Positions 26,706 through 59,632 are shown, numbered from the stretch's first letter. The stretch: 64,000 nucleotides of DNA from Oscillatoriales cyanobacterium (GCA_011390955.1 JAABRM010000001.1:46694-110693), one strand, 5' to 3'. Made by a program: numbers and translations. Notes: a model not told the origin generated them from the sequence alone.

Positions 26706-28334
26706 ATGAATAACTCCCCAAACTACCCTTCAGGCCCAGTTCCCCTGGACTCTCCATTTTATATTCCCCGTCCCCCGGTTGAAGAACTCGTCTACGAAGA
26801 AATCGGCAAACCCGGTGCGCTGATTCGGATTAAAGGGGCGAAGGAAATGGGCAAATCTTCCTTAATGTTAAGAATTGTGGACTATGCCAAAAACCTAGGA
26901 TACCAGATTGTTGCCATAGATTTTCAACAATTTGATGCCGATTGTCTGAATAATTTAGATCGATTTCTCCGCAGCTTTTGCCTGCAAGTGACTAAACAGT
27001 TAAACCTCGAACCTAACCTTGATGAATATTGGGATGAGGATATCGGCAGTAAGATCAGTTGTAGCCTTTATTTTCGCTGGCATATCCTGGAAAATCTCAC
27101 TTCTCCCCTGGTCTTGGTACTTAATGAAGTCAACGAATTATTTGAATATCCCCAACTCACCCAAGATTTTTTGCCCTTACTGCGATCGTGGTATGAAGAA
27201 GCCAAACAAGTCCCAATTTGGCGATCGCTTAGATTAATCGTCGTCTATACCACCGAAGTTTATGTTCCCCTAAAAATTACCCAATCACCTTTTAACATTG
27301 GTTTACCTGTACAATTAGCGGATTTTACCGCCGAACAAGTAGAAGAGTTGGCAAAATTACATCAATTAGAGTGGAATGAGTCGCACACTGAAAAATTAAT
27401 GGCAATAGTAGGAGGTCATCCGATCTTAGTCCGATTAGCATTATATCACTTGGCCACTCACCCAAAAGAAACCCTGGAAAACCTGCTAAACTCCGCTGCC
27501 AGCGATACAGGCATTTACACAGACCATTTGCAGCGGCTTTCTCGTACTCTGGAAGAAGACCCCGAATTAAAAATAGTGTTCCAAAACTTGATTTTGGGGA
27601 ATAAGTCATTAGAGTTACCGCAAAATTTATCCTATAAATTAGAAAGTTTAGGATTAGTCAATTTGACAAACAAGCAAGTCAAAATCAGCCAGGAATTGTA
27701 TCAAAAATATTTTTGGCAAAAAATTCAAGCAGAAATCGACTTACCGGGAATAAAAGACGCCAAATTTCCGGCTAACATTATGACAAGTTTAGCAAAAGAA
27801 TATCAAAAACTAAAACAACTGGCCGAATTAGACGAACTCACACAATTAGCCAATCGAAGAAGCTTTGAAAAAAAACTCCAAGATTACTGGAACCAGTTGT
27901 CTGACACCCAAGAACCTTTATCCCTAATTATCGGTGAAATTGACTTTTTCAAGGTTTACAAAAGTTACTACGGAGAGAAACAAGCCAACCATTGCTTGCA
28001 GGAAGTAGCCCAGGCATTTATTCAGCCAAGTAAAAGTGAGCACACCCTGGTTGCGCGTTATGGGGATGCTCAATTTGCCGTAATTTTACCGAGAATCGAT
28101 AAATCCGCAGCAGTTGAAATTGCTAAAAATATCCAAGCCCAAGTGCAAGGGTTAAAAATTGAACTGAATATTCCTGATTATTCCGGTTTTCCTGATTCAG
28201 TCGTCACCGTCAGTTTAGGCTTAACCACGATGATGGTGACGGCAAATAGCGCTCTAGATGAGTTAATTTCCCGCACTGGACAAGCATTAAAATCTGCCCA
28301 AATCATTGGCGGAAATTATCTTAAATCTGTTTAA
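26706..28334 (+). CDS. 'AAA-like' (PF14516-type) N-terminal ATPase domain fused to a degenerate GGDEF domain
   Basis: N-terminus 'GALIRIKGAKEMGKSSLMLR' (P-loop-like) resembles the N-terminus of 28755-32321. C-terminal GGDEF fold 'LDELTQLANRRSFEK' but active site reads 'RYGDAQFAVILP' instead of GG(D/E)EF, so it is predicted catalytically inactive. Confidence 0.75.
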   Translation: MNNSPNYPSGPVPLDSPFYIPRPPVEELVYEEIGKPGALIRIKGAKEMGKSSLMLRIVDYAKNLGYQIVAIDFQQFDADCLNNLDRFLRSFCLQVTKQLNLEPNLDEYWDEDIGSKISCSLYFRWHILENLTSPLVLVLNEVNELFEYPQLTQDFLPLLRSWYEEAKQVPIWRSLRLIVVYTTEVYVPLKITQSPFNIGLPVQLADFTAEQVEELAKLHQLEWNESHTEKLMAIVGGHPILVRLALYHLATHPKETLENLLNSAASDTGIYTDHLQRLSRTLEEDPELKIVFQNLILGNKSLELPQNLSYKLESLGLVNLTNKQVKISQELYQKYFWQKIQAEIDLPGIKDAKFPANIMTSLAKEYQKLKQLAELDELTQLANRRSFEKKLQDYWNQLSDTQEPLSLIIGEIDFFKVYKSYYGEKQANHCLQEVAQAFIQPSKSEHTLVARYGDAQFAVILPRIDKSAAVEIAKNIQAQVQGLKIELNIPDYSGFPDSVVTVSLGLTTMMVTANSALDELISRTGQALKSAQIIGGNYLKSV

Positions 28335-28345
28335 TTGATTCAATC

Positions 28346-28380
28346 AAAACGCAACAATTGCGTTTCTATATTTTTCCATT
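28346..28380 (+). terminator. putative rho-independent terminator
   Basis: 'aacgcaacaattgcgtt' hairpin followed by 'tctatatttttcc', 12 nt after the stop at 28334. Confidence 0.45.
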
Positions 28381-28735
28381 CTATTCCCTGTTCCTGATTC
28401 CCTGTTCCTGATTCCCTATTCCCTATTCCCCGTTCCCTTTCCCTATTCCCTATTCCCCGTTCCCTATTCCCTATTCCCTATTCCCTATTCCCCGTTCCCC
28501 GTTCCCTTATGACTTACGCAATGACTCTATATATGGGGTATTGGTGCGTTACGCTTCGCTAACGCACCCTACAAATAGCATTTATGCGTAAGTCCTGTCC
28601 CTATTCCCCGTTCCCCGTTCCCCGTTCCCCGTTCCCTATTCCCTATTCCCTATTCCCTATTCCCTATTCCTTATTCCTTATTCCCTATTCCCTATTCCCT
28701 ATTCCCTATTCCCTATTCCCTATTCCCTATTCCAT
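28377..28735. repeat. STRR-like TTCCCTA/TTCCCCG heptamer array interrupted by an ~90-bp inverted-repeat-flanked insert
   Basis: Arrays 28377-28500 and 28597-28735. Insert 'gacttacgcaatgac...ggtgcgttacgcttcgctaacgcacc...atttatgcgtaagtc' has 10-11-bp terminal inverted repeats and an internal hairpin. Confidence 0.8.
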
Positions 28736-28754
28736 AGCCAAAACCAAATAAACT

Positions 28755-31700
28755 ATGAGTCAATACTCTTACCAAGTCGGGGGAAGTTTAGCTAGTGATG
28801 CCCCCACTTATGTGCAACGTTGCGCCGATCGCCAACTTTATCAAGGTTTAATTAATGGGGAATTTTGCTATGTGTTTAATTCCCGACAAATGGGTAAATC
28901 TTCTTTGCTGGTACAGACAAGAAAACGGTTAGAAGAACTGGGATATCTCTGCACTACCATTGACTTGACTAAAATTGGTAGTGAAAATATCACCCCTGTC
29001 CAGTGGTATAAAGGGATGATGACTGAGTTATGGCAAGGATTCAATTTAATTGGCAAAGTGCGCTTCAAAAATTGGTGGCAAGAAGTTGAAGATATGTCCT
29101 TGTCCCAAAAATTAAGTCAATTTATTGAGTCAGTAATTTTCCCGAATGTTGCGGCAGAAAAAATTTTTATTTTTGTCGATGAAATTGACACAATTCTGGG
29201 GTTAGATTTTTCCGTTGATGATTTTTTTGCCCTGATTCGGTTTTGCTATAATCAACGGGCGGTTAATTCGGAATATCAGCGGCTCAGTTTTGCTTTATTT
29301 GGCGTTGCTACCCCTAGCGATCTAATTAAAGATAAAAGCCGAACACCTTTTAATATTGGCACTGCCATAGATTTAGGTGGATTTGAACCGGAACAAGTTC
29401 AGCCACTCTTGAGAGGATTAGAGGAAAATGTCAGTCATCCCGAAATTGTTTTAAAAGAAATCTTAGCCTGGACTAATGGCCAACCATTTCTGACGCAAAA
29501 ATTGTGTCATTTAGTGATTCGGGAATTTAAAGTTATGAAAAATGATGTAAAAATTCCCCCAGGCATGGAAGCTTTTTGGGTAGAAAGTTTAGTCAAAAGT
29601 AAAGTAATTAACCATTGGGATGCTCAAGATGAACCGGAACATTTAAGAACTATTCGCGATCGCCTCTTACGCAACCAAAAACGAGCCGGTAGATTATTGG
29701 GAATTTATCAGCAGGTATTACAATATGATGCCCTCAACCATGATGCCCTCAACCCACCCTTAGCCAAAAAAGATGCTGAGGGAATTTCCTGTGATGATAG
29801 CTTAGAACAAATTGAATTAATTTTATCAGGATTAGTCGTCAAAAAACAGGGATATTTGCAAATAAAAAACCGCATTTATGGCGAAGTATTTAACTTAGAA
29901 TGGGTAGAAAAACAACTCTCCGGTCTGCGACCTTATTCCCAAACCTTTGATGCTTGGGTCGCTGCCGGACAAACGGATCGATCTCGACTTTTACGCGGTC
30001 AAGCCCTCAAAGATGCTCAACTTTGGGTCCAAGGCAAAAGTTTAAGCGATTTAGATTATCAATTTTTTGCCAAAAGTGAAGAATTGGATCGCCAAGAAAT
30101 GCAAATAGCCTTAGAAGCAGCCAGAACCCAAGAAGTAGAAGCCCGACTTGCTGAAGAACAAAAAAGGCTCAAACAAGAACAAAAAACCGCAAAATTGCAA
30201 CGGTTATTCTTAGGGGTTGTTACATTTGCTTTCGCCATATCTTCGGGAATTGGCTTATTTGCTTTCTGGCAATATCGACAGGCAAGAATCAGTGAAATTA
30301 TGGCTTTGGCTTCATCTTCTAAGGGCTTGTTTGCCTCCAATAAGCACTTAGAAGCGATGATCGCGGCAATTAAAGCCCAACGGGGCATCGACTCTCTGGG
30401 TAAAGTCGATCCCAAAATCGCCACTCAAGTGGAAACTGCCTTAACCCAAGCGATTTATGGCACGAACGAATATAATCAGCTTGTGGATCATCAAGGCAGT
30501 GTTTTGAGCGTGGATATTAGCTTAAATGGCCAGTTAATTGCTACGGCTAGTAACGATAAAACCGTGAAAATTTGGCAGCAAAATGGCAAATTATGGAAAA
30601 CCCTGCCACATTCAGCCACGGTGCATCGAGTTGCCTTTAGTCCAGACAACAAATCCCTCGTTTCTGGGAGTTTAGATGGGACGGTTAAGCTGTGGAATGT
30701 GGAAGGGAAACTGTTACAAGATATTCAGGGACATAATGCCCCAGTTTGGGGAGTTGCTTTTAGCCCCAATGGGCAAATGTTTGCTTCGGCAAGTGGCGAT
30801 CGCACCGTAAAAATTTGGCGCACCGACGGCACATTGTTAACCACTTTAACCGGACATCAACAAGCAGTTTGGAATGTTGCTTTCGACCCTGAAAGTCAAA
30901 TTGTCGCTTCTGCTGGAGTCGATCGCACCGTCAAACTTTGGCAGATTGACGGTAAGTTACTCAAAAACCTAGAAGGACATCAGGGAGCAGTTTGGGATGT
31001 CGCGTTTTGCCAGAAAACTAACTTACTCGTATCGGTTAGTTCCGACAAAACCGCAAAACTGTGGCAAAAAGATGGCACTTTGGTCAGAACTCTTCCGGGG
31101 GAAGATGTCATCATCGGCGTTGATTGTAGCGAGAACGGCGAATACATTGCCACCAGTGGCAAAGATAATGTGGTCGCACTGTGGAAACCCGATGGCACTT
31201 TTGCCAGAAACTTAAGAAAACATGACGCGGTGATTCGGGATGTGGCCTTAAGAACTGATGGCTTGATGGCCGCTTCTGCCAGTGATGATGGCACGGTGAA
31301 ACTATGGCAACGGAATATCTATTTATTAATTCCGCTTTATGGCCATGAGGATACGATTTGGGATTTGACCGCGAGTCCCGATGGGAAATTCATCGCCTCT
31401 GTGGGAGATAATAGTCTCCGACTCTGGGAAGCCAATGGCAAGTTGTGGCAGCAAATCGAGAGTTCAGACCAAGGAATTCGGGCTGTGGCTTTTAGTCCAG
31501 ATTCACAGATCGTCGCCATGAGCAAGAATGCTCAAATCGAGCTTTGGGATGTCAAAAATACTCAGAAATCCCCTACAGAACCGAGAAGAGTATTGACGGG
31601 ACATCAGGCTGCCGTATATGCGATCGCCGTCAGTCCCGACGGTCAAACCATCGCCTCTGGTGGTGACGACAAAACCATTAAACTTTGGCATCTGGACGGA

Positions 31701-32321
31701 AAACTACGCCAAAGTATTGTCGCCCATGATGAAAGAATTTGGAAAATAGCCTTTACCCCAGACGGTCAAGCGATCGCCTCTGCCAGTGAAGATGGCACCG
31801 TGAAATTATGGCAAACCGATGGCACACTTTTGGCCACATTGAATCATCAAGGGGGTGCGGTTTGGGGCGTCGCCATCAGTCCCCAAGGGGATTTGATTGC
31901 CTCTAGCAGTCGGGATGACACCGTAAAACTCTGGAAATTAGATGGCACCCTAATGAAAACCATTCCCGGGCAGAGTAAAGGCATCACCAGAGTCGCCTGG
32001 AGTCCCGATGGTCAAACCATTGCCACTGGAGGTGTGGACAATACGGTGAAACTGTGGAACCGGCAAGGAGAATTACTCGCAACTTTGCCCGGACATACCG
32101 GCATGGTGGTCAGCGTTGCCTTTACCCCCGATCGTGAATTTGTGGTTTCTGGGAGCGACGATCGCAGCGTGATTATTTGGGATTTAGCAAAAATTCATAC
32201 CCTGAAAAAACTGACTTATGCCTGCGACTGGGTACGGGATTATTTGCAGAACAATCCTCTGGTGGAAGCAAAAGACCGAAACCTTTGTGATGGGGTGAAA
32301 AGCGATGGGGTGAAAAAATAG
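28755..32321 (+). CDS. 'AAA-like' (PF14516-type) N-terminal ATPase domain - coiled coil - TM segment - ~14 WD40 repeats
   Basis: N-terminus '[28 protein letters not shown]'. Coiled-coil '[24 protein letters not shown]'. TM '[22 protein letters not shown]'. Long array of 'SPDGQxIASxSxDxTVKLW' units. Confidence 0.85.
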
Positions 32322-32439
32322 AGCAACGTCCTACAGAGTCAAGAAACCGGGTTTCTTGACTCTGGTAAATGTTAGATCAAATTTTAGGCAGAAACCCGGT
32401 TTCTCTGTCCCAGGAAAAACCTGGAAAAATGTAGCCTAT

Positions 32440-32575
32440 TTTACTGTTTATAGCGGTTTTTATTGGATGAAGTACAGAGGTTTTCTGGATTCTTTTTCTG
32501 GATTCCCGCCTGCGCGGGAATGACAGGTTTTTTTGTCCTTCATCACTCCGAAAAGTGCTATAAAAACCCATCGTT
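32440..32575. repeat. MITE-like repeat fragment (inverted orientation of left module)
   Basis: 'ggatgaagtacagaggttttctggattc...ggattcccgcctgcgcgggaatgacaggttttttt'. Flanked by a 'gaaaccgggtttct' palindrome at 32345-32405. Confidence 0.55.
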
Positions 32576-35169: not shown

Positions 35170-35357
35170 TTGAATATATTAGCAATTAGTGCTGATTACT
35201 CGCACTGATTAATCTGTCACTCTTTAGACCATAGTCTGGCGATGAATAACCCATGCTAAAATATCTTGGGTCATATAGTGGCCTAATCTAAAGACACATC
35301 CAGAATATCACGGCCTTGGAAAATCTGGCCTAGTGTGAAAAATTAATTATTTACCAT

Positions 35358-35440
35358 TATTTGTTATTTGTTGTTGGTTGTTGGTTATTTGTTATTTCTT
35401 ATTTCTTATTTGTTGGTTGGTTGTTGTTGGTTGGTGGTTG
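35358..35440. repeat. STRR-like TTGTTGG/TTATTTG array (single arm)
   Basis: 'ttgttatttgttgttggttgttggttatttgttatttcttatttcttatttgttggttggttgttgttgg'. It overlaps the 3' tail of the ruvX ORF. Confidence 0.75.
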
Positions 35441-38702: not shown

Positions 38703-39002
38703 TTCGTTATTTGTTGTTGGTTGTTGGTTATTCGTTATTTGTTCTTGGTTGTTTGTTCTTTGTTGTTCGTTGTTCGTTGGTTGTTCGTTGGTTGTTGTTC
38801 GTTGGTTGTTGTTCGTTGGTTGTTCAACAATCAACAATCAACAATCAACCACCAACAAAGAACAAACCACCGATCGCTTACCACCAACAAACAACAAACA
38901 ACAAACAACAAACAACAAAGAACAAAGAACAAAGAACAAACAACAAACAACTTGCCAACAAACAACAAACAACAAACAACAAACAACAAACAACAATCAA
39001 CC
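38703..39002. repeat. large STRR-like inverted array (TTGTTGG/TTGTTCG arm then CAACAAA/CAAAGAA arm)
   Basis: Direct reading. It fills the entire 370-bp intergenic region between two minus-strand genes. Confidence 0.85.
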
Positions 39003-39617
39003 TTACATTAAGAAATTTTGTGTCATCGTCACGTTGCCAGAGGTCAATTCCACGGTAAACTCTTCTCCCCGTTCAACCGTAAACTCTAATTGAATCACCT
39101 CACTGGTCGGATGGGCGGTCGCGCAGCCGCGAACATCCCCCAAAGGAGAAAGCACAGTCATCAGCAGATTTTCTGGTAAATAATGTAAATCCGTCCCATG
39201 AACTTGTAAAAGAATGCTGGTTTTGGTGGAAGATTCGTTTTTCAGAGTGACAATTAGGGCGACTGGGGATTCTAAATAAATCAACTTGGTGCGTTTTACT
39301 CCAGCAGTTTGTAACGCAATCTGGGTTTCTGCTGAAGTTCCTGTGGGGGCAAAAATATCCTCAATAGAATGCCAATCAGGTTCAAATACATCGTGGAACC
39401 ACTGCCGCAGTCTGACGGGCAATTCGGTGAAATCCTCCCCCCAATTTTCTAGCCAATCGCTTTCAACATCTTCAACATAAAGATTGACATAATCAAAGCC
39501 AGAGTTAATTCTTTCTTGCTGTAATTTCTCTGCATCTTCTAGTAAATGCCAAATTCTTTCAAGCCGGTCTTTATTGCTCAGATTGCTAGTAGTTATGCTC
39601 ATGGATGGCTTTTTCAA
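39003..39617 (-). CDS. hypothetical protein sharing a C-terminal domain with 17876-19036
   Basis: C-terminus 'TVERGEEFTVELTSGNVTMTQNFLM' vs 'SVGEQFSIRLSLGEVSITENFVI'. Confidence 0.5.
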   Translation of the reverse strand: MKKPSMSITTSNLSNKDRLERIWHLLEDAEKLQQERINSGFDYVNLYVEDVESDWLENWGEDFTELPVRLRQWFHDVFEPDWHSIEDIFAPTGTSAETQIALQTAGVKRTKLIYLESPVALIVTLKNESSTKTSILLQVHGTDLHYLPENLLMTVLSPLGDVRGCATAHPTSEVIQLEFTVERGEEFTVELTSGNVTMTQNFLM

Positions 39618-46751: not shown

Positions 46752-47075
46752 TCTTTGTTATTTGTTATTTGTTGATTGTTGATTGTTATTTGTTGATTGT
46801 TGATTGTTGATGGTTGATTGTTGATTGTTGATTGTTGATGGTTGATTGTTGATTGTTGATTGTTGATTGTTGATTGTTGATTGTTGATTGTTGATTGTTG
46901 AACAACGAACAACTAACAACCAACAACTAACAACCAACCAACAACGAAAGAATCCCTACCCAAAGAATCCCTACCCAACAACTAACAACCAACCAACAAG
47001 AACCAACAACCAACCAACAACAACCAACAAACAACCAACAACAACCAACAAACAACCAACAACAAACAACAAATC
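46752..47075. repeat. large STRR-like inverted array (TTGTTGA/TTGTTAT arm then CAACAAC/CCAACAA arm) inside the pot operon
   Basis: Starts 2 nt after the potB stop and ends 33 nt before the potC start. Confidence 0.85.
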
Positions 47076-48230: not shown

Positions 48231-49619
48231 CTACTGATTTTTCACATACTGTTTAAATAAGCCTTGCACGATAAATAGGGACGCACCATTATTATCGCTG
48301 ATTTTTTCGATTAAACCCCGTTTCCGCAAAGACTGGATCGCGGTCAAAAAGTCAGCATCCGGTAGTAGGGGCGAATGGCCATTCGCCCCTACGGGTTTCT
48401 GGAAAATATCGGCGGCTTCTTGGTTGACTAACCACCCCATGACTATTTTTTCAGGTTCAGATAACCGTTGATAATATTCTTGTAATCTGGGTTCTAAGTC
48501 TCCGAGAAATAACGTAGGATAAGATAAGAAGCGATCGACGCTGCGGTTAAATAAGTCGTCAATGGTAGCCGCAACAATATTTAACCAGGACGGGTTGCCG
48601 CTATAAAGTTGGATCAGTTCCCCCCATTTATGCCGATCCTTTAAGTCTTTATTGGTCAGTATTTCCGTTGCCGCTTCTCCCAACCCACCCAGTTGTAAGC
48701 TACGGCAATGGCGGTTTTCTCCTTCTAAGGTGGCAATTTCTGTGGGCTTTTCCCAACTGAGGATGAGGAAGCAACTTTTGTGAGGCGATCGCGCCATTTC
48801 TTTGAGAAATTTCCCATAACTTTCGGCTTCTGGCAGATAAGTGCCTGCGAATTTTTCAGGGGCAAACAGTTCTTGGAAGTCATCGAGAATAATCAGACAA
48901 CGATTTAAACGCAAATAGTCGATAAGGGATGATGATTTGGTTTCCTGATTTTGGGAAAAAAACTCAATTAAATTGGTTTGGAAAGATTTTAGGGTGAGAG
49001 TTTCGCTACAGTTGCGCCAAAGGATATAGTCAAAGTTATCTTTAGTTTGTTCTACCAGTTCTCTAGCGAGGGTGGTTTTGCCTATTCCCGGCAAGCCAGA
49101 CATATTTACAAGGCGGATTTTTTCGGCCAAAATCCACTTTTTTAGGGTGGTTATTTCTGCAAGGCGGTTATTATGATGCTCCCATTCCGGGGCTTCGGTT
49201 AAATTGTGGCGTTGTTCTGGTTGTTGGCTAGGGGAATTTGTGGAGGAATTGGCAGAGGGCGATCGGGTTTTTCCTGTGTCGTAATACCTACTATCTCCAC
49301 AAAAGTTTATTTCACCCTGATTAAAATTACTTTGGACAAAGTTTTGAATCTTAGAATTAGAGATATAAAAACGTTCCATTGTAGCGCGGAAGTTTTTCTT
49401 ATCTATTTTTTCGTCTAACTCATCGGATATTAATTTCCATAAACTAGCCGCTACTCGCTTAACATTTGGTTCGCTACAGTGATAATCCTCGGCGATATCT
49501 CTGTATTTTTGACTATCCCAAGCCCCTGCTAAAATTGCCTGTTGCAGATTATTTAAGTGCGCTCCTGTTTTGGCAAATACTAATTTATCAGCCCATGCGA
49601 GGACTTCTTTAACATCCAT
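48231..49619 (-). CDS. STAND NTPase (NB-ARC type) with N-terminal helical domain and no C-terminal repeats
   Basis: Walker A 'MSGLPGIGKTTLAR'. Walker B 'CLIILDDFQELF'. It contains an in-frame perfect palindrome 'gtaggggcgaatggccattcgcccctac' (48365-48392) encoding 'VGANGHSPLL'. Confidence 0.75.
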   Translation of the reverse strand: MDVKEVLAWADKLVFAKTGAHLNNLQQAILAGAWDSQKYRDIAEDYHCSEPNVKRVAASLWKLISDELDEKIDKKNFRATMERFYISNSKIQNFVQSNFNQGEINFCGDSRYYDTGKTRSPSANSSTNSPSQQPEQRHNLTEAPEWEHHNNRLAEITTLKKWILAEKIRLVNMSGLPGIGKTTLARELVEQTKDNFDYILWRNCSETLTLKSFQTNLIEFFSQNQETKSSSLIDYLRLNRCLIILDDFQELFAPEKFAGTYLPEAESYGKFLKEMARSPHKSCFLILSWEKPTEIATLEGENRHCRSLQLGGLGEAATEILTNKDLKDRHKWGELIQLYSGNPSWLNIVAATIDDLFNRSVDRFLSYPTLFLGDLEPRLQEYYQRLSEPEKIVMGWLVNQEAADIFQKPVGANGHSPLLPDADFLTAIQSLRKRGLIEKISDNNGASLFIVQGLFKQYVKNQ

Positions 49620-50033: not shown

Positions 50034-51281
50034 ATGGAACAGTGGATTAACTTTGATCGGTCGCTCAATCAACGCTTGAACCGAGAGGCTTTAGATCAAC
50101 AACAAAGCAAAGCTAAAAACTTTTCTCTTGAAGGCCATGCTTTAGTTCGAGGTGTAGCCGGGTCTGGCAAGTCACTGGTCTTGAGAAATCGAGTTGAAAA
50201 ACTCATTGATGATGGCTATGATAATATTTTAGTGCTGTGCTATAACCGCTTTATGAACGGTTGGATTGACTCAAAACTAAGAGAAAAAAGGTTAAACTTA
50301 GATATAACCTGTAAAACCTTCCACAGTTGGGCATATCGAATTGGATATGATTATAAATGGGACGATCATCCGGATTCCCGACAAAAAATTATCAACTTAG
50401 TCGAAGAAAACTCAAAACATCGCTATCAAGCAATTTTAATTGACGAAGCGCAGGACTTTTACGACGAATGGTTCCAAGCAATGCTACCAGCAGTCAATCC
50501 AGACACAAATTCTATTTTTTTTGTTTATGATAACACTCAATCAGTTTATGGGCAACCTCATCGGCTTAAAGACAGTTGGACATGGAAATCTCTTGGGTTT
50601 ACAATTCCTGGTGGTCGTTCTCAAATATTTGAGCTTAACTATCGAAACACCCCGGAAATCTTGGAATTAGCTTGGCAATTTATTTTACCTTATTTGTCTA
50701 ATGCTAAGATGAAAATTTCCAAGCGGGCTGAGGCGGGAGGAAACATTGGTCACATAGTCGAACCTGTAAAAAAAACTGCCCGCAGTTCTTCGATTAAACC
50801 AATACTGGTTAAAGGTGATATATCTGCAAGTATTATCGCTAATCAAATTAAGTTGGCATTAAATAGCCATCCAGAATCTTCAGTTGGCGTTTTGCTACAT
50901 CCCAATGAGGATAAAAGTTTTAAGAAAAAAATTAGTGATTGTTTGTGGGATCTAAATATCGATCATCATGCACCAATGCGTTCAATAGAACGAAATAGTA
51001 ACGTTGTAGATAGACCATTTGTCATCATTGATTCCTGGAATGCTCTTAAAGGAGTTGAATTTGATGCAGTGATCATTGCCGGGATAGATAAGGTAAAAGA
51101 TTTACCAGACACCGATGAAGATTTCAAAGAAAAAGCTGGGTTATATACAGCAATGACACGGGCAAGAGATCATCTGATTATGTTATATGATAATGAAACT
51201 CCAGTAGTCAAGCAGATTGAAAAAATTCTAGCATCCCCAGATGTTTTATCTTTCGATATAGATATGAGGCAATCAGCTTAA
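50034..51281 (+). CDS. compact SF1 (UvrD/Rep-like) helicase-core protein, 415 aa
   Basis: Motif I 'GVAGSGKS'. Motif II 'ILIDEAQDF'. Motif VI 'LYTAMTRARDHL'. All core motifs are packed in ~400 aa with no obvious 1B/2B accessory insertions. Confidence 0.7.
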   Translation: MEQWINFDRSLNQRLNREALDQQQSKAKNFSLEGHALVRGVAGSGKSLVLRNRVEKLIDDGYDNILVLCYNRFMNGWIDSKLREKRLNLDITCKTFHSWAYRIGYDYKWDDHPDSRQKIINLVEENSKHRYQAILIDEAQDFYDEWFQAMLPAVNPDTNSIFFVYDNTQSVYGQPHRLKDSWTWKSLGFTIPGGRSQIFELNYRNTPEILELAWQFILPYLSNAKMKISKRAEAGGNIGHIVEPVKKTARSSSIKPILVKGDISASIIANQIKLALNSHPESSVGVLLHPNEDKSFKKKISDCLWDLNIDHHAPMRSIERNSNVVDRPFVIIDSWNALKGVEFDAVIIAGIDKVKDLPDTDEDFKEKAGLYTAMTRARDHLIMLYDNETPVVKQIEKILASPDVLSFDIDMRQSA

Positions 51282-51289
51282 TTTGTTTA

Positions 51290-51510
51290 GTGAAAAGGCG
51301 ATCGCTTTCTTATTTGATAGAAAGGCGATCGCTTTTTTGCTGCGAAAAAGAAACCGGGTTTCTGTTGTGGAAATAACAGTTAACTGTGACAGCACAAAAA
51401 GAAACCCGGTTTCTGTGCGATCGTTTCTGTGGCAAGAAGCGATCGCGCAGCGTTCCTGCGAGGGAATCGCTATTTTATTTAGCAGAAAGGCGCGATCGCG
51501 CTTGTTATCT
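51290..51510. repeat. ~220-bp structured cassette-flanking repeat, copy A
   Basis: Contains paired 'agaaaggcgatcgc' direct repeats. Also contains 'gctgcgaaaaagaaaccgggtttctgttgtggaaataacagttaactgtgacagcacaaaaagaaacccggtttctgtg' with two AGAAACCGGGTTTCT palindromes, and HIP1 sites. Confidence 0.75.
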
Positions 51511-51645
51511 ATTGTCGCAGTTGGGTAGTTGAGTTTATGCTTTTGGTTCAAGTTAATATTTATATGTTAACATGGTATATCAAACACCTACATTATACCC
51601 TTTGATAGTTTGTGTAGGAGCGTGACGAATTCAAAAGAGGTAAAA

Positions 51646-52008
51646 ATGAGATTAAAAGTCAGTGAAAATGGTCTGGTCATTCCGCCATCCTTATTGACGG
51701 GTTTAGAGGAGGTGGAAATTCGCAGAGAAGGAGACGTAATTAGCATCTTCAAAATCAATAATATTATTGAAACCATAGAGACTATTGATATTTCGATAGT
51801 TAAGGGAGAAGAGGCTCAAATTTTGCTGGAAGAGAAACTAAAAAAAATTCAGGAATCGAAAAAAAAGCGATCGCTCGATCCAGCCAAAGTTGATCTAGGG
51901 TCAAGATTTAGCCAGTTGTGTCGAGAAATCCAAGCGTTACACGCAGATAATCCTTTATCTGAAGCGGAGATTGCAGCAGAAATTGATGCGGTGAGGAGAG
52001 GTGAGTGA
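51646..52008 (+). CDS. AbrB/MazE/SpoVT-like type II antitoxin candidate
   Basis: Strong RBS 'aagaggtaaaa' before ATG 51646. N-terminal 'MRLKVSENGLVIPPSLLTGLEEVEIRREGDVISIF' swapped-hairpin-like. Stop overlaps the PIN gene start by 4 nt. Confidence 0.55.
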   Translation: MRLKVSENGLVIPPSLLTGLEEVEIRREGDVISIFKINNIIETIETIDISIVKGEEAQILLEEKLKKIQESKKKRSLDPAKVDLGSRFSQLCREIQALHADNPLSEAEIAAEIDAVRRGE

Positions 52009-52424
52009 AGATTATCATCGATACAAATGTTTTGGTTTCTGCGACCATTGCCGATGGAAAGCCAGAAGATACCATTAATTTTATTATAGGGAGTGATGAA
52101 TGGGAATGGATTGTATCCGACGCAATTCTCCATGAATACCGAGAGGTCTTAAATCGTCGAAAGCTTAAGTTAAGCGAGACGGTTAAACAAAATTGGTTAA
52201 ATATTGTTGAGTTAGCAACCACAAAAATTGATGTAGCAGTTAAGGTAAATTTTCCTAGAGATCGCAAAGATGAAAAATTTTTAGCTTGTGCGGTTGTCGG
52301 TGAGGCTGATTTTTTAATTACAGGCGACCGTGACTTTGAAGAAATGCAAGCACTTTTACCCAACACAATCATTATTTCCGTTGCTATGTTTAAAAAATTG
52401 GCGATCGATGCTGTTGAAAGCTAA
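52005..52424 (+). CDS. PIN-domain toxin candidate (VapC-like)
   Basis: 'MKIIIDTNVLVSA' N-terminal acidic motif. C-terminal 'FLACAVVGEADFLITGDRDF'. Confidence 0.65.
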   Translation: MKIIIDTNVLVSATIADGKPEDTINFIIGSDEWEWIVSDAILHEYREVLNRRKLKLSETVKQNWLNIVELATTKIDVAVKVNFPRDRKDEKFLACAVVGEADFLITGDRDFEEMQALLPNTIIISVAMFKKLAIDAVES

Positions 52425-52464
52425 AAGCCGGGAGGGAGAATTTATTCCCAGTGGTTTTTGCGAA

Positions 52465-52650
52465 ATCGCTCTCTTATTTTCCAGAAAAGCGGTAAGCGGA
52501 GCTATGTCCAAAGGGCTTATCGCCTCTTGGCTGCGAAAAAGAAACCGGGTTTCTGTGTACCCGTTTCTGTGGCAAGAAGCGTTCGCTATGCTGTCAGGCA
52601 AGCACGCTATTTTATTTCCAGAAAAGCGATCGCTATTTTTCTGCTGACTA
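52465..52650. repeat. cassette-flanking repeat, copy B (shorter; lacks the central 'ttgtggaaataacagttaactgtgacagc' segment)
   Basis: 'ggctgcgaaaaagaaaccgggtttctgtgtacccgtttctgtggcaagaagcgttcgc...attttatttccagaaaagcgatcgc'. Confidence 0.7.
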
Positions 52651-52940
52651 ACTTTATAATAAAATAGGAAGATATGGCTCAAACAGGAGAGTAAAAACGA
52701 ACAGCATCTTCAACGAATTAGTCCAGTACAGACAGCAACTTGGTCTACCACCTGCGGGCAGCGAAGCCGACAGATCGACCATAGCGAAATTAGAAATAAA
52801 CGCTCAAATTTTCTTCGGCATTAAATCGAGGTGGAGTTAATTCTATGGCTTGGCAATTAGGCATAGAAGAATTAGAAATTGTTACTCCGAGTGGCACTAA
52901 GACCATAACAGTTAAACCACCAAAAACCAGGAGAGAATAA

Positions 52941-53360
52941 ATGTTTGTATCAGACTTATCAGTGGAAAAATGGGTTGGCAATCAAGATGAAGGGACTTTG
53001 ATTTCCAACCCAACTTGGCAAGAAATAAAATCAGCTATTTGCGAATTAAACGGCAACAGTCAAACTTTAGTAACCTTGGGTGCTGATGAAGAAATGTACA
53101 TGAGTATTGGTGGCGGCGCCGCCGGTAAATATATTGTTAATGTCACTTTCGATGGCATGAATTTTTATAACTTAGTCGATCGCTCCCAACCAGAAAAAAT
53201 GGACCAACTGGCGATCGGCGGACAGTTGGGAAATTATTCAGCTAAACTCTGCGTGGATTTACAAGCCGCTTTGTTAGTCGCTAAAACTTTTGCCCAATCC
53301 GGGAAACTTGAAGAGTCAGTGATTTGGGAAGATTTCCAGTCATTAGCGATGGTGGGATAA
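52941..53360 (+). CDS. hypothetical protein, possibly an Imm1-like polymorphic-toxin immunity protein (orphan)
   Basis: Pattern 'TWQEIKSAICELNGNSQTLVTLGADEEMYMSIGGGAAGKYIVNVTFDG' resembles the Imm1 family layout. Assignment by memory only. Confidence 0.4.
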   Translation: MFVSDLSVEKWVGNQDEGTLISNPTWQEIKSAICELNGNSQTLVTLGADEEMYMSIGGGAAGKYIVNVTFDGMNFYNLVDRSQPEKMDQLAIGGQLGNYSAKLCVDLQAALLVAKTFAQSGKLEESVIWEDFQSLAMVG

Positions 53361-53379
53361 GCGAGTTATTTGATTACCC

Positions 53380-53590
53380 CATTCATGCGATCGCTTTCTT
53401 ATTTGCTAGAAAAGCGATCGCTTATTGGCTGCGAAAAAGAAACCGGGTTTCTGTTGTGGAAATAACAGTTAACTGTGACAGCACAAAAAGAAACCCGGTT
53501 TCTGTGTACCCGTTTCTGTGGCAAGAAGCGTTCGCGCAGCGTTCCTGCGAAGAAATCGCTATTTTATTTCCAGAAAAGCGATCGCGAACA
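53380..53590. repeat. cassette-flanking repeat, copy C (full length, ~95% like copy A)
   Basis: Direct comparison with 51290-51510. Confidence 0.75.
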
Positions 53591-53668
53591 TAGCAAGTAA
53601 ACGTAGGTAGCCGATCGCACCAAAATGGATTATAATCGAATAGCTTAAATCAGTCGAGGTAATGATTA

Positions 53669-53878
53669 ATGAAATTAACAGCAACAGAACAGGGCTTATT
53701 AATTCCTAAAGACATATTAGGAGACAGTCAAGAATTTGAACTTACCCAAGAAAAAGGAAAAATTATTATTACGGTCATCAAAAAATCATCTTCTATTTGG
53801 GATTTAGGTTCAAATCCTGTGGAATGTGATGTAAAAGATGCCGCCATCAACCACGATCGTTATCTGTATAACCAATGA
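53669..53878 (+). CDS. AbrB/SpoVT-like antitoxin candidate
   Basis: 'MKLTATEQGLLIPKDILGDSQEFELTQEKGKIIITVI'. Overlaps the next gene by 4 nt. Confidence 0.5.
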   Translation: MKLTATEQGLLIPKDILGDSQEFELTQEKGKIIITVIKKSSSIWDLGSNPVECDVKDAAINHDRYLYNQ

Positions 53879-54297
53879 AAAACATTTATTTTTTGGATAC
53901 CAGCTATATTTTGGCTCTGGAAATTAAAAATGAAGCGGATCATAAACAAGTCTTACAAAATTGGGTTATTTTAGCACAATCAAAACCCGTTTTAGTAACT
54001 ACAACATACATTTTTGATGAAATTGTCACTTTCTTTAATAGCCGAAACCTTCATCATAAAGCAGTGGAAGTTGGTAATCGCCTCTTGTCAAGTCCCGATA
54101 TAGAGTTAGTAGAGATTAATACAACTTTATTTAATCAGGGCTGGCAATATTTTCAAAAATATCAAGACAAGTCTTATTCCCTCACTGATTGTTTATCATT
54201 TATCGTTATGGAAGAACGAGGGATTATTACGGCTTTAACCTTAGATCATCATTTTATTCAAGCTGGATTTCAAATTTTCCCATCATCACTTAATTAA
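53875..54297 (+). CDS. PIN-domain toxin candidate (VapC-like)
   Basis: 'IYFLDTSYILALE' N-terminal Asp. 'DCLSFIVMEERGIITALTLDHHF' C-terminal acidic motif. Confidence 0.65.
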   Translation: MKNIYFLDTSYILALEIKNEADHKQVLQNWVILAQSKPVLVTTTYIFDEIVTFFNSRNLHHKAVEVGNRLLSSPDIELVEINTTLFNQGWQYFQKYQDKSYSLTDCLSFIVMEERGIITALTLDHHFIQAGFQIFPSSLN

Positions 54298-54299
54298 AA

Positions 54300-54420
54300 A
54301 TACGGTTTAATTTCAGAAAAGCGATCGCTTTTTTATTTCTAGGAAAGCGATCGCTATTTTATTCCCGCATAAAGAAACCGGGTTTCTTTGGTGGAAATAA
54401 CAATTTATCGCCTAATTTAG
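54300..54420. repeat. cassette-flanking repeat, copy D (partial)
   Basis: 'agaaaagcgatcgcttttttatttctaggaaagcgatcgctattttattcccgcataaagaaaccgggtttctttggtggaaataacaa'. Confidence 0.65.
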
Positions 54421-54429
54421 GGAGCGGGT

Positions 54430-55494
54430 TTAGTGATGCAAATTAACTTGACTGATAATTGCTGTAGCCATCAGGTTTAGGGGAACGATCGAATCACTCA
54501 AGCCATTTTCTTCGATCACCGCAGGCATTCCATAAACCACACAAGTGGACTCATGTTCGGTAAAAATTAAACCCCCTTGGGATTTAATCATAGCCGCTCC
54601 CAAGTGGCCGTCAGAACCCATTCCCGTCATTACCACCCCTAAAACGCGATCGCCAAATACCTCGGCAGCGGATTTAAACATCACATCCACACTGGGACGA
54701 TGGATAGTTTCCTGGGGCAGAAAACTCAAACGAGTCGCCACTTGACCATCTGCTTGACGGGCAAACGTCAGATGTTGTCCCGAACGAGCGATATAGACAA
54801 TTCCCGGTCGGAGAATATCCCCATGTTTTGCTTCCACCACTTTAATCGGTGATTGTTGATCGAGGCGCTGGGCATAAAGTTCCGTGTACCCTTCGAGCAT
54901 GTGCATCACGATCGCAATGGGGATGGGAAAATTCTCAGGCAACTTAGGAATCATCTGAGTCAATGCCGCAGGGCCACCAGTGGAAATCCCAATCGCCACT
55001 AACTCGATCGGTGCAGGCGGCTTGTTTGGAGTCATCAATAACGTTGTGGGTTGTGGTGGGGTGGTGGTTGGGTCAACCAAAGGAGGCATAGAAATCTTAG
55101 CGGCGATTTTGACTTTGGCAATCAACTCATCGGTCATGTGTAATAAATCTTCTGATGCCAAGGCGGTCGGTTTGTGGATAAAATCAACTGCTCCCTCCGC
55201 TAATGCCTCGACCACTTGCTGGCTATTCCCCACCGCAATACTAATAATAATAATCGGTAAAGGACGACGCGCCATTTGCTTCCGTAAAAACTCCAAACCA
55301 CCCATGTACGGCATAATTAAGTCTAGAGTCACCACATCAGGCTTCAACTGTGGGATGAGTTCGAGTGCCTCTTGTCCATCAGATGCCGTCCCCACCACTT
55401 CAATAAACGCACTGCGGGATAATATGGCTTTGATCATTTTCCTGACAAACGCCGAATCATCGACAACTAGGACTTTGATTAACCCGACCATCAT
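54430..55494 (-). CDS. cheB: chemotaxis response regulator protein-glutamate methylesterase
   Basis: N-terminal REC domain 'KVLVVDDSAFVRKMI...DVVTLDLIMPYMGG'. C-terminal CheB methylesterase 'GISTGGPAAL', 'VMTGMGSDG'. Confidence 0.85.
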   Translation of the reverse strand: MMVGLIKVLVVDDSAFVRKMIKAILSRSAFIEVVGTASDGQEALELIPQLKPDVVTLDLIMPYMGGLEFLRKQMARRPLPIIIISIAVGNSQQVVEALAEGAVDFIHKPTALASEDLLHMTDELIAKVKIAAKISMPPLVDPTTTPPQPTTLLMTPNKPPAPIELVAIGISTGGPAALTQMIPKLPENFPIPIAIVMHMLEGYTELYAQRLDQQSPIKVVEAKHGDILRPGIVYIARSGQHLTFARQADGQVATRLSFLPQETIHRPSVDVMFKSAAEVFGDRVLGVVMTGMGSDGHLGAAMIKSQGGLIFTEHESTCVVYGMPAVIEENGLSDSIVPLNLMATAIISQVNLHH

Positions 55495-55695
55495 TTTTGA
55501 CTCCGACTCTATTGAGTCCAGTAATTAATAATTTGATCGCACTCGATCGTCGCACTCGATCGGCGATCTCAGTCACGGGACTGATGCATCATTTCTATTA
55601 GTTGGAGGGATTAATCTTCGGAGCAACTTATGAATGACTCCTAGGGCTAATCGACGAGATATTCGGCACCAAAGAAAGAGTCGTCCCTGTGTCAA

Positions 55696-56634
55696 TTAAT
55701 TGCGGTGATTGTTACTATAGTAAATTCTCGCTCCGGCCCAGTGAAGCTTTTCTCGCAAAGTGCGGTAATAAGAATAATTTTCTCGGAGAATAATAAATTG
55801 AGCTTGACATTGGGCGATGCGAACTTCAACGTGCTGTCCCGGCCAAATTGAGGTGCCAAGAACCCCATCAGTCCAAAGTTTGGTGCTTAAGTCGCGATCG
55901 CCTAATGGCCAAATTTTCACCACCGAACCAGGGGGTAATACAATCGGACGACTGGAAAGACTCAAGGGACAAATCGGCGTTACCGCGATCGCCTCCATTC
56001 CCGGATGCATAATCGGGCCATTCGCTGATGCGGTATAGCAGGTAGACCCGCTGGGGGTCGCTACAATTAGACCGTCTCCCTGATATTGATCGACGATTTC
56101 CCCATCCACTTCCATTTCCAAGGTAGAAGTGGGAATGCGATCGCTGGTTGCCGGTTTAACGCACATCTCATTCAACGCCAAAAAAGGCGGATCCTGAGTT
56201 TCCGTGCCACTGACCGGCTTCAAACTGGGATCCAACCCATCCAAGACCCTCGCTTGCAACATCATCCGTTGCTGCACCGCATAGCGATCGTCCATGAGTC
56301 GTTGCCAAACCGTCTCCGTATCTTGAAATGCCTCAGTAGGTTCCGTCAAAAAACCCAGATGGCCGCCCACATTCACCGCTAAAATGGGGATGCGATCGTG
56401 AGACAACTGCCTTGCTGCTGCCAATGCGGTGCCATCCCCTCCTAAAACCACCGCTAAATCTATTTTTTGGGTCGAAGAAGCCAAAAATACTGGATAGGGA
56501 TTATCCTTTGGGCCGCTAGGTCCCATGAGCACTTTACAGCCAAGGGATTCAAGCTGTCGAGCGCATTGTTCGGCGCGACGCTTACTCAGGGGATCGGCAG
56601 CTTTATGGGCAATAATAACTTGTTTAAGTTCCAC
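55696..56634 (-). CDS. nadK: NAD(+) kinase
   Basis: 'VVLGGDGTALAAAR' and 'NEMCV...' motifs of the NAD kinase family. Confidence 0.85.
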   Translation of the reverse strand: MELKQVIIAHKAADPLSKRRAEQCARQLESLGCKVLMGPSGPKDNPYPVFLASSTQKIDLAVVLGGDGTALAAARQLSHDRIPILAVNVGGHLGFLTEPTEAFQDTETVWQRLMDDRYAVQQRMMLQARVLDGLDPSLKPVSGTETQDPPFLALNEMCVKPATSDRIPTSTLEMEVDGEIVDQYQGDGLIVATPSGSTCYTASANGPIMHPGMEAIAVTPICPLSLSSRPIVLPPGSVVKIWPLGDRDLSTKLWTDGVLGTSIWPGQHVEVRIAQCQAQFIILRENYSYYRTLREKLHWAGARIYYSNNHRN

Positions 56635-59565: not shown

Positions 59566-59566
59566 T

Positions 59567-59632
59567 TATTTGTTGGTTGTTAGTTGTTAGTTGTTAGTTG
59601 TTAGTTGTTTGTTGTTTGTTGTTTGTTGTTTT
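59567..59632. repeat. STRR-like array TTGTTAG/TTGTTTG (single arm)
   Basis: 'ttgttggttgttagttgttagttgttagttgttagttgtttgttgtttgttgtttgttg'. Begins 2 nt after the stop. Confidence 0.8.

Follow-up and report, generated by a model that had tools for sequence, protein, structure and literature searches.

Modules bounded by pdif sites, the 28-bp XerC/XerD sites of Acinetobacter plasmids, are discrete, include toxin–antitoxin (TA) pairs, carry short recombination sites at their bounds and turn up in differing contexts and in either orientation, without a recombinase beside them. The locus described here likewise consists of discrete, TA-containing modules that are bounded by repeats, occur in varied contexts and orientations and have no adjacent recombinase, although it lies on a chromosome and has far longer repeats, with no apparent similarity to pdif sites. 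It also recalls chromosomal integron arrays, including those without an integrase (CALIN), in that compact, TA-rich modules are each followed by a structured, imperfectly palindromic repeat, in that a gene module is gained or lost together with a single repeat, and in having no recombinase nearby; integrons occur in cyanobacteria (PMC4889954). Two further systems resemble the repeats themselves. REP/BIME mosaics and REPINs are short extragenic palindromes in high copy, mostly occurring as inverted doublets with constant spacing, grouped in mosaics with other motifs, biased towards gene 3′ ends and unstable in copy number (PMC3116915), all of which applies here. The small dispersed repeats (SDRs) of Nostocaceae (Elhai et al. 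2008), in the portion of that work relayed by PMC5861425 and PMC3116915, share with this locus the hyper-abundance of HIP1, a 27–28-nt element lodged within a HIP1 site for which matching empty sites exist, and repeats nested in repeats; relative to that same portion, our lineage is Oscillatoriales, and HIP1 boxes here coincide with gene-module boundaries. PMC5861425 reports that no SDR-like repeat was found outside Nostocaceae and notes that what HIP1 does has been an open question since the 1990s. Little is understood of the way cyanobacteria build up very large sets of TA and defence genes.

We analyzed a 64-kb stretch of DNA (the window) from a Planktothricoides-like cyanobacterium, in which three gene modules (TA1, Imm1 and TA2) lie between four repeats (A–D), at the positions given in a preliminary description. 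The array is probably a variable accessory islet, whose modules would be shuffled by recombination between mosaic repeats that may also act as terminators. The cassette-like organization proposed in that description, with gain and loss in relatives, was borne out; its integron/attC reading was not. The region comprises, in window coordinates:

48231–49619, minus strand: STAND NTPase, left anchor of the variable region, paired with the helicase
50034–51281, plus strand: UvrD-like helicase (Pfam UvrD-helicase/AAA_19/UvrD_C), left anchor of the variable region
51283–51515: repeat A (HIP1-box hairpin, GCTGCG, palindrome doublet, GTTTCTGTGGCAAGAAGCGATCGC module, second HIP1 box)
51290–51338: HIP1-box hairpin of repeat A
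51349–51414: palindrome doublet of repeat A, preceded by GCTGCG
51415–51470: GTTTCTGTGGCAAGAAGCGATCGC/GCAGCG...AATCGC module of repeat A
51466–51505: second HIP1 box of repeat A
51646–52008, plus strand: TA1 antitoxin candidate (120 aa), whose last 4 nt overlap the toxin start; without a Pfam or PDB family
52005–52424, plus strand: TA1 toxin, PIN_3 family (PF13470, E 1.3e-17; TIGR00305, E 1e-19)
52455–52655: repeat B (HIP1-box hairpin, single palindrome, GTTTCTGTGGCAAGAAGCG module, terminal HIP1 box)
52492–52518: 27-nt insertion in repeat B, splitting the second HIP1 of its HIP1-box hairpin
52540–52554: single palindrome of repeat B
52605–52633: terminal HIP1 box of repeat B
52649–52940, plus strand: remnant of a MafB19-like deaminase toxin module of the start-less kind, from alignment to loci L118, L120 and L124
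52941–53360, plus strand: Imm1 immunity gene (PF14430, E 5e-7, 30.9 bits against a cut-off of 22.4)
53375–53600: repeat C (HIP1-box hairpin, GCTGCG, palindrome doublet, GTTTCTGTGGCAAG.../GCAGCG... module, HIP1 box)
53387–53427: HIP1-box hairpin of repeat C
53438–53503: palindrome doublet of repeat C
53555–53590: terminal HIP1 box of repeat C
53669–53878, plus strand: TA2 antitoxin candidate (69 aa), sharing 4 nt with the toxin gene; no Pfam family
53875–54297, plus strand: TA2 toxin, PIN (VapC-like; PF01850, E 1e-11)
54300–54405: repeat D, truncated (HIP1 boxes at 54321 and 54347, palindrome at 54373–54387, first half of the doublet interior)
54430–55494, minus strand: cheB (Pfam CheB_methylest and Response_reg), right boundary

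On the left, the helicase is 96% identical at the nucleotide level in the complete genome of P. raciborskii GIHE-MW2 (locus L126), and the order PBP, ABC transporter, STAND, helicase is kept between that genome and the window. On the right, homology to relatives on the cheB side ends at 54407–54434. The array does abut cheB, with repeat D giving way at about 54406 to the conserved cheB 3′ flank, and beyond cheB (downstream) the content is different in every relative examined.

Both TA pairs have a VapBC-type layout, in which a PIN toxin follows a small gene with a 4-nt overlap. Pfam and TIGR models confirmed the PIN toxins, but the AbrB-like label proposed for the antitoxins has no Pfam or PDB support; the two antitoxin candidates have an N-terminal motif in common. 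In L129 and L130 the same TA1 toxin follows a different upstream gene, an AAA ATPase. The TA2 antitoxin candidate and toxin are conserved together in L120, L126 and L129, members of the toxin's cluster carry the name VapC in Planktothricoides, and the toxin gene is disrupted in P. raciborskii GIHE-MW2. The middle gene, first described as an Imm1-like orphan, has an Imm1 domain above the gathering score but is not a bare orphan, given the deaminase toxin remnant upstream. A 159-nt deletion at about 52827 took out the HAE...CxxC core of this toxin and left the ends; the intact counterpart ORF in L120 matches PF14437 (MafB19-deam) at E 1e-12. With Imm1 directly 3′ of a deaminase toxin domain, the module resembles the orphan toxin-CT/immunity cassettes of polymorphic toxin systems, where a start-less C-terminal deaminase domain is followed at once by Imm1 (PMC3482391). 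It differs from them in having no full-length toxin gene nearby, in the deleted toxin core, and in being embedded among TA pairs and bounded by HIP1/palindrome repeats. The 52 Imm1 homologues are spread across Oscillatoriales and Nostocales, many of them on contigs of 0.8–1.7 kb.

The four repeats measure 105–230 bp, and each is a mosaic that folds as three to four separate hairpins. A and C align at 94% identity over 183 nt and alone contain the 66-nt doublet, whose two palindromes, with CCGGG and CCCGG at their centres, are reverse complements of each other; the doublet folds into an imperfect hairpin at −34.6 kcal/mol (z about −8). Two palindromes had been placed about 45 bp apart; both are there, at a spacing of 51 nt start to start, with 36 nt between. 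The outer GCTGCG...CGCAGC inverted repeat ascribed to every copy pairs in A and C, not in B and D. Internal deletion, suggested for both B and D, describes B (51 nt absent relative to A and C, plus the insertion that splits a HIP1 site) but not D, which is truncated and ends within the doublet at about 54405; full-length D-like copies are present in L126 and L129. The duplicated agaaaagcgatcgc boxes are real and are more correctly hairpins built on the HIP1 octamer GCGATCGC. This octamer is strongly over-represented, with 89–90 copies in the window against 0.5 expected, and 11 of these sites fall within the array. A HIP1-box hairpin consists of two such sites 26–27 nt apart followed by T-rich sequence, has a folding energy of −19 to −30 kcal/mol and starts 2–45 nt past a stop codon, repeat A itself beginning 2 nt past that of the helicase. 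One was flagged as terminator-like, and the HIP1-box hairpins may terminate or insulate the transcription of each module. Promoter-like matches were at chance level.

With an attC site defined as one imperfect hairpin of about 57–141 nt with extrahelical bases, the repeats, being three to four independent hairpins, were rejected as attC-type; only the 66-nt doublet resembles a single hairpin of attC size. No R″ (RYYYAAC)/R′ (GTTRRRY) pair 50–150 nt apart was found on either strand in any repeat or in 51200–54500, and an Rfam scan of 50500–55500 with E up to 10 gave only sub-threshold matches to unrelated families. The reported absence of intI also held: ORFs of at least 150 aa in the 64-kb window contain no integrase (Phage_integrase included), resolvase or transposase domain, and no recombinase domain occurs among the called genes of eight related loci. 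It is nevertheless conceivable that this is a true integron cassette array without integrase, its repeats being divergent attC sites: the modules are small, co-oriented and TA-rich, a structured repeat follows each, and cyanobacterial integrons are on record (PMC4889954). We consider this extremely improbable in view of the missing core sites, the multi-hairpin build of the repeats, the lack of the doublet hairpin in B and D, the lack of intI within 64 kb, the reversed modules in relatives, and a repeat family scattered beside the housekeeping genes of many genera. Module-specific sequence of 68–290 nt lies upstream of the genes, so the modules may not be promoter-less. As a practical warning, such arrays look integron-like by eye, yet fail the attC definition.

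The dispersal concerns the 15-nt palindrome AGAAACCSGGTTTCT, an element of filamentous cyanobacteria whose usual form is an inverted doublet about 51 nt apart, intergenic and beside ordinary genes. The resulting element of roughly 65 bp has the inverted 15-mers AGAAACCGGGTTTCT and AGAAACCCGGTTTCT as its ends; smaller elements are nested in it and in the HIP1-box hairpins. Copies noted elsewhere in the window were recovered at 15606 and 32342/32390:

15606–15620: single palindrome, overlapping the stop codon of a WD40 gene
32342–32404: palindrome doublet spaced 48 nt, whose interior is different; it lies 21 nt past the stop codon of an AAA_35/WD40 gene

The array, 4.9% of the window, holds six of its nine palindromes (binomial 1e-6). 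A broader scan yielded more than 109 loci with at least 260 palindromes. Among the matches listed, 122 of 131 palindrome clusters at cyanobacterial loci fall outside ORFs, adjacent pairs are convergent in 68 of 109 cases (56 of the 68 spaced 47–54 nt), and 144 of 224 neighbouring genes turn their 3′ end to the cluster. The neighbours, in many cyanobacterial genera, are histidine kinases, PsaK, CbiC, enolase and the like. The repeats are generic and dispersed, not cassette-specific. Terminal inverted repeats of 15 nt and a size of roughly 65 bp are MITE-like traits, and the MITE-bounded cassette system offered as an alternative in the preliminary description fits the data. By eye, the listed palindrome flanks showed no consistent target duplication, no autonomous parent element came to light, and the commonest families among 150 neighbouring ORFs included no RAYT (Y1) transposase. 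The palindrome is unrelated in sequence to REP sequences and REPINs (PMC3116915) and has no GTAG/CGTC tag; its doublet interior, self-complementary in the window's subfamily (z about −3), is not so in most genomes (median z −0.6).

Array content varies among related strains, with breakpoints within repeats, and thus the locus is not a static repeat-rich spacer. In L129 and L130, and in the unitigs L131 and L132, the order is TA1, one repeat, TA2, with the Imm1 module absent between them. The unit by which the window differs is:

52634–53585: indel unit relative to L129–L132 (toxin remnant, Imm1 and one composite repeat; about 950 nt)

Direct repeats of about 100 nt lie on either side of this unit and include an identical 29-mer (52605–52633 and 53557–53585) and a 51-nt stretch of 98% identity (52536–52586 versus 53485–53535). 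Window positions 51400–52614 correspond to 4399–5632 of L129 and 53485–54393 to 5532–6464; the two segments overlap in L129 by about 100 nt, and the L129 spacer consists of the left side of B and the right flank of C. In L126, the interval from the helicase to TA2 holds another gene (85 aa, opposite strand), with TA1 and Imm1 absent there; the junctions, near 51480 and 53412 of the window, lie within HIP1 boxes, and the A-like repeat of L126 has three tandem doublets. TA2 and Imm1 occur in another order in L120, with four other genes between, and the Imm1 module has other neighbours in L121, L124, L125 and L118. Co-orientation, previously likened to that of integron cassettes, applies to all modules in the window, but relatives show both orientations among homologous or adjacent modules, with the 85-aa gene (L126) and PIN pairs (L118, L120, L121) reversed. 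Breakpoints do not sit at one fixed position, falling in HIP1 boxes in some strain pairs and in palindromes in others. Across the compared islets, HIP1/palindrome composites occupy every spacer and are found at none of the flanking housekeeping genes. In TA islets, composite repeats reach about 20 times their density in flanking DNA (about eight loci). Several comparison loci are metagenome contigs, in which repeats can cause mis-joins; the main conclusions are drawn from two complete genomes, a pair of independent assemblies and unitigs.

In the reading we favour, the islet sits downstream of the conserved STAND-NTPase/helicase pair and comprises the PIN_3 pair TA1, a degraded MafB19-like deaminase toxin with Imm1, and the VapC-like PIN pair TA2. 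Because its spacers are mosaics of two cyanobacterial repeat families, HIP1-box hairpins and the roughly 65-bp palindrome element, 100–200 bp of 85–98% identical sequence lies at every module boundary. Boundary-to-boundary recombination would then delete, insert, invert, duplicate or exchange units of one module plus one repeat, presumably by RecA-type homologous recombination, possibly after uptake of foreign DNA, rather than by a dedicated recombinase. Repeats fill every spacer, however, so breakpoints would fall in them anyway, and cause is not thereby separated from correlation. The repeats might be passive filler, selfish MITE/REP-like elements and HIP1 hairpins that gather in poorly constrained spacers while modules turn over by unrelated processes (illegitimate recombination, island turnover). 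Most intergenic regions of the genome are indeed repeat-rich (heptamer arrays, other families), the palindrome family is generic, and nested insertions and copy-number changes show the repeats to be mobile or unstable in their own right. We nonetheless regard this as rather unlikely, because the L129 difference is bounded by direct repeats and its hybrid B-left/C-right spacer is a signature of repeat recombination, and because a number of independent module boundaries fall at the first HIP1 on either side.

The sharing of modules between genera also supports the favoured reading. The Imm1 module is 91.8% identical in nucleotides to its counterpart in Phormidium sp. ETS-05, versus 75% in nucleotides for NAD kinase and 58% in amino acids for CheB, and this homology starts at the HIP1 at 52626 and ends at the HIP1 at 53387. 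A DUF433/DUF5615 cassette shows 83% nucleotide identity between Arthrospira and the window relative L121; its left junction is a HIP1 site, intact in L121 and half in Arthrospira, and at its right end L121 has a complete HIP1. That both junctions with ETS-05 lie exactly at HIP1 could, however, indicate a site-specific or HIP1-directed mechanism instead of plain homologous recombination. Taken further, a dedicated integron-like system might use the HIP1-box hairpin or the doublet as the site of a recombinase encoded elsewhere and produce circles of one gene plus one repeat. Both cross-genus cases would suit it, as would strains differing by exactly one module plus one repeat, the attC-like size of the imperfect 66-nt hairpin, an exact 15-mer conserved across cyanobacterial orders as for a protein-recognized site, and the enrichment of composites in TA islets. 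Such a system is distinctly unlikely, however: no recombinase occurs in the window or the eight related loci, the same palindrome lies beside many housekeeping genes without cassette structure, breakpoints shift between HIP1 boxes and palindromes by strain pair, both module orientations occur, direct repeats of about 100 nt suffice for RecA, and HIP1 is so dense in the repeats that nearby junctions are weak evidence.

Recombination between mosaic repeats, the reading we prefer, has a more general version, in which the composite HIP1-box/palindrome repeats would be portable recombination sites in filamentous cyanobacteria. TA, immunity and defence modules would be captured, excised as one gene plus one repeat, reordered, inverted and exchanged between genera, a functional counterpart of the integron working through host homologous recombination or another recombinase. 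This generalization is doubtful; if true, it would give HIP1 a concrete role at cassette junctions. The locus is a small, well-defined case, with three or more allelic states in close strains, a clean difference of one module plus one repeat, and two cross-genus modules bounded at HIP1, and thereby makes repeat-mediated cassette exchange directly testable. As a separate observation, the repeats of arrays like this one break short-read assemblies, leaving cassette-sized contigs.

The region 51283–54405 consists of one repeat in four copies, interleaved with three gene modules, which bears out the layout proposed in the preliminary description:

51283–51515, repeat A
52005–52424, toxin of the first pair (TA1), PIN_3/TIGR00305 by Pfam and NCBIfam
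52455–52655, repeat B
52649–52940, remnant of a MafB19-like deaminase module, upstream of Imm1
52941–53360, Imm1 protein, by Pfam and NCBIfam
53375–53600, repeat C
53669–53878, antitoxin of the second pair (TA2)
53875–54297, TA2 toxin, PIN by Pfam and NCBIfam
54300–54405, repeat D

A small gene precedes each PIN toxin with a 4-nt overlap, and the two small genes have an N-terminal motif in common. Both pairs had been described as an AbrB-like antitoxin with a PIN toxin; Pfam and NCBIfam confirm the PIN assignments, whereas the AbrB identity of the antitoxins found no support in Pfam, NCBIfam or PDB. Unexpectedly, a phmmer comparison with PDB sequences paired residues 19–61 of the TA2 antitoxin with the WD40-repeat protein 2ymu_A of Nostoc (E = 2.8 × 10−9), with no stretch significant by itself, and the match may be a compositional artefact. 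A promoter scan returned 9 promoter-like sites against 8.7 expected, and is therefore uninformative on whether the cassettes are promoter-less.

Repeats A and C are 94% identical across 183 nt; B is missing a 51-nt segment and has gained a 27-nt insertion, and D ends internally at ~54405, where the cheB 3′ flank conserved with relatives starts. The agaaaagcgatcgc boxes contain GCGATCGC, the cyanobacterial HIP1 octamer, which occurs ~90 times in the window versus 0.5 expected. Two HIP1 boxes 26–27 nt apart form a hairpin (−19 to −30 kcal/mol) that begins 2–45 nt past a stop codon and is followed by T-rich sequence. Their position, stability and T-rich tails suggest that these hairpins act as terminators or insulators; a terminator scan flagged one of them. 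The 15-mers AGAAACCGGGTTTCT and AGAAACCCGGTTTCT, mutual reverse complements 51 nt apart, make up a palindrome doublet, and in A and C the pair closes an imperfect hairpin of 66 nt (−34.6 kcal/mol). With its modules in the order HIP1-box hairpin, GCTGCG, palindrome doublet, GTTTCTGTGGCAAGAAGCG module, GCAGCG...AATCGC module and HIP1 box, each repeat is thus a mosaic. Arthrospira platensis PCC 7345 has a nearly base-identical copy of this composite, with another 27-nt element nested in its doublet, and a Laspinema genome bin contains the composite as well.

The HIP1-box unit (~26 nt, GCGATCGCTATTTTATTCCCAGATAG) is also a HIP1-containing minisatellite, with 4–8 tandem copies at database loci L118 (1–116) and L125 (3368–3563); repeat D holds 2.3 copies of it at 54306–54363. 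A hairpin element of 27–28 nt, GTAAGCGGARGCT...GGGCTT, splits a HIP1 site into GCG and ATCGC at four places:

window, 52492–52518
L120, ~2395–2430
L065 (Arthrospira), ~1200–1232
L118, ~116–152

Matching empty sites are present in repeat C of the window and in L121 when compared with L065. In its behaviour the element resembles the small dispersed repeats that target HIP1 in Nostocaceae, which PMC5861425 states were not found outside that family.

The array had been read as a sedentary chromosomal integron with attC sites. No attC core-site pair (RYYYAAC ... GTTRRRY, 50–150 nt apart) was detected in any repeat or elsewhere in 51200–54500 on either strand, and folding the repeats for attC features, a check proposed with that reading, gave several hairpins per repeat, not one. 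An Rfam scan of 50500–55500 with E up to 10 matched hairpins at chance level only, for example mir-4766, and window ORFs of ≥150 aa contain no integrase, resolvase or transposase domains. The locus is a genuine array of repeat-bounded modules without integron status, and the core-site, folding and domain results leave a canonical integron extremely improbable.

Comparison of strains for cassette gain and loss, also proposed at the outset, revealed that array content differs by units that each pair one module with one repeat. In the complete genome of P. raciborskii GIHE-MW2 (L126), where gene calls are heuristic as in all relatives' loci, the helicase is followed by an A-like repeat containing three doublets in tandem and then by an 85-aa gene on the opposite strand; next come a C-like repeat, TA2, whose toxin is disrupted, and a D-like repeat of full length. 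This locus lacks TA1 and Imm1. Its homology to the window stops at ~51480, inside a HIP1 box, and restarts at 53412, at a HIP1. Two independent assemblies (L129/L130) and two unitigs (L131/L132) have the arrangement TA1, single repeat, TA2. L129 matches the window at 51400–52614 (96%) and 53485–54393 (95%), and because these matches overlap by ~100 nt in L129, the window carries one extra unit of ~950 nt, in which the toxin remnant and Imm1 are joined to one composite repeat, with direct repeats on both flanks. The L129 spacer joins the left side of B to the right flank of C, as expected if B × C recombination, or the reverse insertion, had produced the difference.

Recombination of the RecA type between direct repeats would gain or lose one module together with one repeat. 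Direct repeats of ~100 nt at 90–98% identity are sufficient substrates for it; this is the simplest mechanism, and we consider it somewhat more likely than not. The hybrid spacer of L129 makes it less likely that the repeats are purely passive, which we consider unlikely.

Other relatives carry the same modules in other combinations. In L120, TA2 and the Imm1 module both occur, flanked by the same repeats, in a different order and with four other genes between; L121 has the STAND gene in common with the window and other modules ahead of Imm1; and in L118 the Imm1 module follows an 88-aa gene that shares its family with the 85-aa gene of L126, and precedes a reversed PIN pair. HIP1/palindrome composites occupy every intra-islet spacer of these loci and are absent from the flanking housekeeping genes. 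Metagenome contigs may be mis-joined at repeats; the comparisons with L126 and L129–L132 do not depend on such contigs alone. A metagenome scan with a 25-nt composite pattern gave only two loci, one of them highly informative. Exact matches to the window CheB and Imm1 proteins were confined to short Logan contigs ending inside repeats, short-read assemblies (L001, L002) break inside composite repeats, and Imm1 and TA1 homologues in many samples lie on contigs about one cassette long (0.8–1.7 kb). Repeat-bounded arrays will be systematically fragmented in metagenomes.

Modules are also shared across lineages. The Imm1 module is 91.8% identical over 563 nt to that of Phormidium sp. ETS-05 (complete genome, L124), against a baseline of 75% (nt) for NAD kinase and 58% (aa) for CheB, and the common stretch starts exactly at the HIP1 at 52626 and ends at the one at 53387. 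A relative of the window and Arthrospira share a DUF433/DUF5615 toxin-antitoxin cassette at 83% identity (nt), with 108 of 121 toxin residues matching. Its left junction is a HIP1 site, intact in the relative and half kept in Arthrospira, and the HIP1 past the toxin is intact in the relative and split by a 28-nt insertion in Arthrospira. By automated measurement, many breakpoints lie 0–15 nt from a HIP1; we do not treat this closeness as significant, since HIP1 recurs every ~50 nt in the repeats and BLAST alignment ends are accurate to a few nt only. A dedicated recombinase working at the HIP1 boxes or the palindrome we regard as quite improbable.

In relatives, Imm1 is directly preceded by an ORF that lacks a start codon and is a MafB19-like deaminase domain (E = 1 × 10−12), a combination typical of orphan toxin-CT/immunity cassettes. 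The deaminase module is intact in L118, L120 and L124, while the window remnant has a 159-nt deletion at ~52827 that takes the catalytic HAE...CxxC core.

CheB is 86% identical to its Planktothricoides counterpart, and the helicase clusters at 90% identity with P. raciborskii proteins. On the left, the order PBP, ABC transporter, STAND NTPase, helicase is common to P. raciborskii GIHE-MW2 (88–97% nt), with homology extending through repeat A. On the right, 90–94% nucleotide homology with three relatives ends at the cheB stop codon, and the sequence beyond differs in each. Conflict- and signalling-type genes abound in the window (17876–23810, 26706–32321, 39003–39617, 48231–49619), including two STAND NTPases of the NB-ARC/NACHT type, DUF1822 proteins whose N domain is TRADD-like, fusions of AAA_35 with GGDEF or WD40, and a TPR-linked protein kinase; the array sits at the edge of one STAND/helicase pair. 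In ETS-05 (L124, 1–8700) an islet with a restriction-modification system, Imm1, RelB/ParE and a PIN gene adjoins the NAD kinase gene, and in the window (54430–56634) one gene, cheB, separates the array from NAD kinase. The surroundings of NAD kinase may be a hot spot for repeated insertion.

Scanning one genome per species with AAAGAAACCSGGTTTCTGT, a pattern biased toward one palindrome subfamily, gave at least 109 loci. The matches listed are nearly all from filamentous cyanobacteria (Microseira, Calothrix, Scytonema, Oscillatoria, Microcoleus, Arthrospira, Hormoscilla and Laspinema among them) and contain 260 copies of the 15-mer. Among the cyanobacterial loci listed, 122 of 131 palindrome clusters lie outside ORFs. 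Adjacent pairs in the same matches are convergent in 68/109 cases, with a spacing of 47–54 nt in 56 of these 68; the other common form there is a back-to-back pair 18 nt apart. The doublet interior (~35 nt) varies by genome in this set and is mostly not self-complementary, so the unit resembles an element of ~65 bp bounded by terminal inverted repeats of 15 nt. Neighbours among the matches listed are ordinary genes (histidine kinases, PsaK, CbiC, Rieske, enolase, pyruvate kinase), not unusually short (median 212 aa versus 141 aa in controls), and 144 of 224 turn their 3′ end toward the cluster. The whole pattern weighs strongly against a cassette-specific recombination site. Furthermore, no general enrichment of toxin-antitoxin genes beside the palindrome was found among the matches listed, so the enrichment seems specific to the composite repeat in the islets of this lineage.

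The palindrome is also present at loci (L020, L038 and others) from genome bins with non-cyanobacterial labels: Planctomycetaceae and Pirellulaceae bins have paired copies among theirs, and those labelled Chloroflexi, Bacteroidales or Lachnospiraceae have it singly; these finds may reflect binning contamination, chance or a wider distribution. A full-text literature search with the palindrome sequence found no paper, and the cyanobacterial MITE, HIP1 and cassette literature searched contained no description of this arrangement. Repeat C had one weak, partial match in a plasmid collection, in an unannotated Kovacikia plasmid.

The repeat family of the array differs from that of the remaining window, where tandem heptamer arrays (TTGGTTG, CAACAAA, TCCCTAT and others) fill many intergenic regions (for example 2802–3028, 8087–8503, 28381–28733, 35357–35440, 38706–39001, 46754–47073 and 59566–59630). 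Heptamer-type short tandemly repeated sequences are typical of filamentous cyanobacteria. At 15070–15406, a 130-nt unit that includes the palindrome GTCATTCCCGCCTTCGCGGGAATCC is repeated 2.6 times at 99% identity; near 32500 (32490–32530) there is a related copy, GGATTCCCGCCTGCGCGGGAATGACAG, and both are close to the isolated AGAAACC palindromes. Short tandem duplications with units of 44 nt and 55 nt, at 13615–13710 and 17735–17840, surround the hairpin TAGGGTGGGCAA...TTGCCCACCCTA and are another dispersed repeat family.
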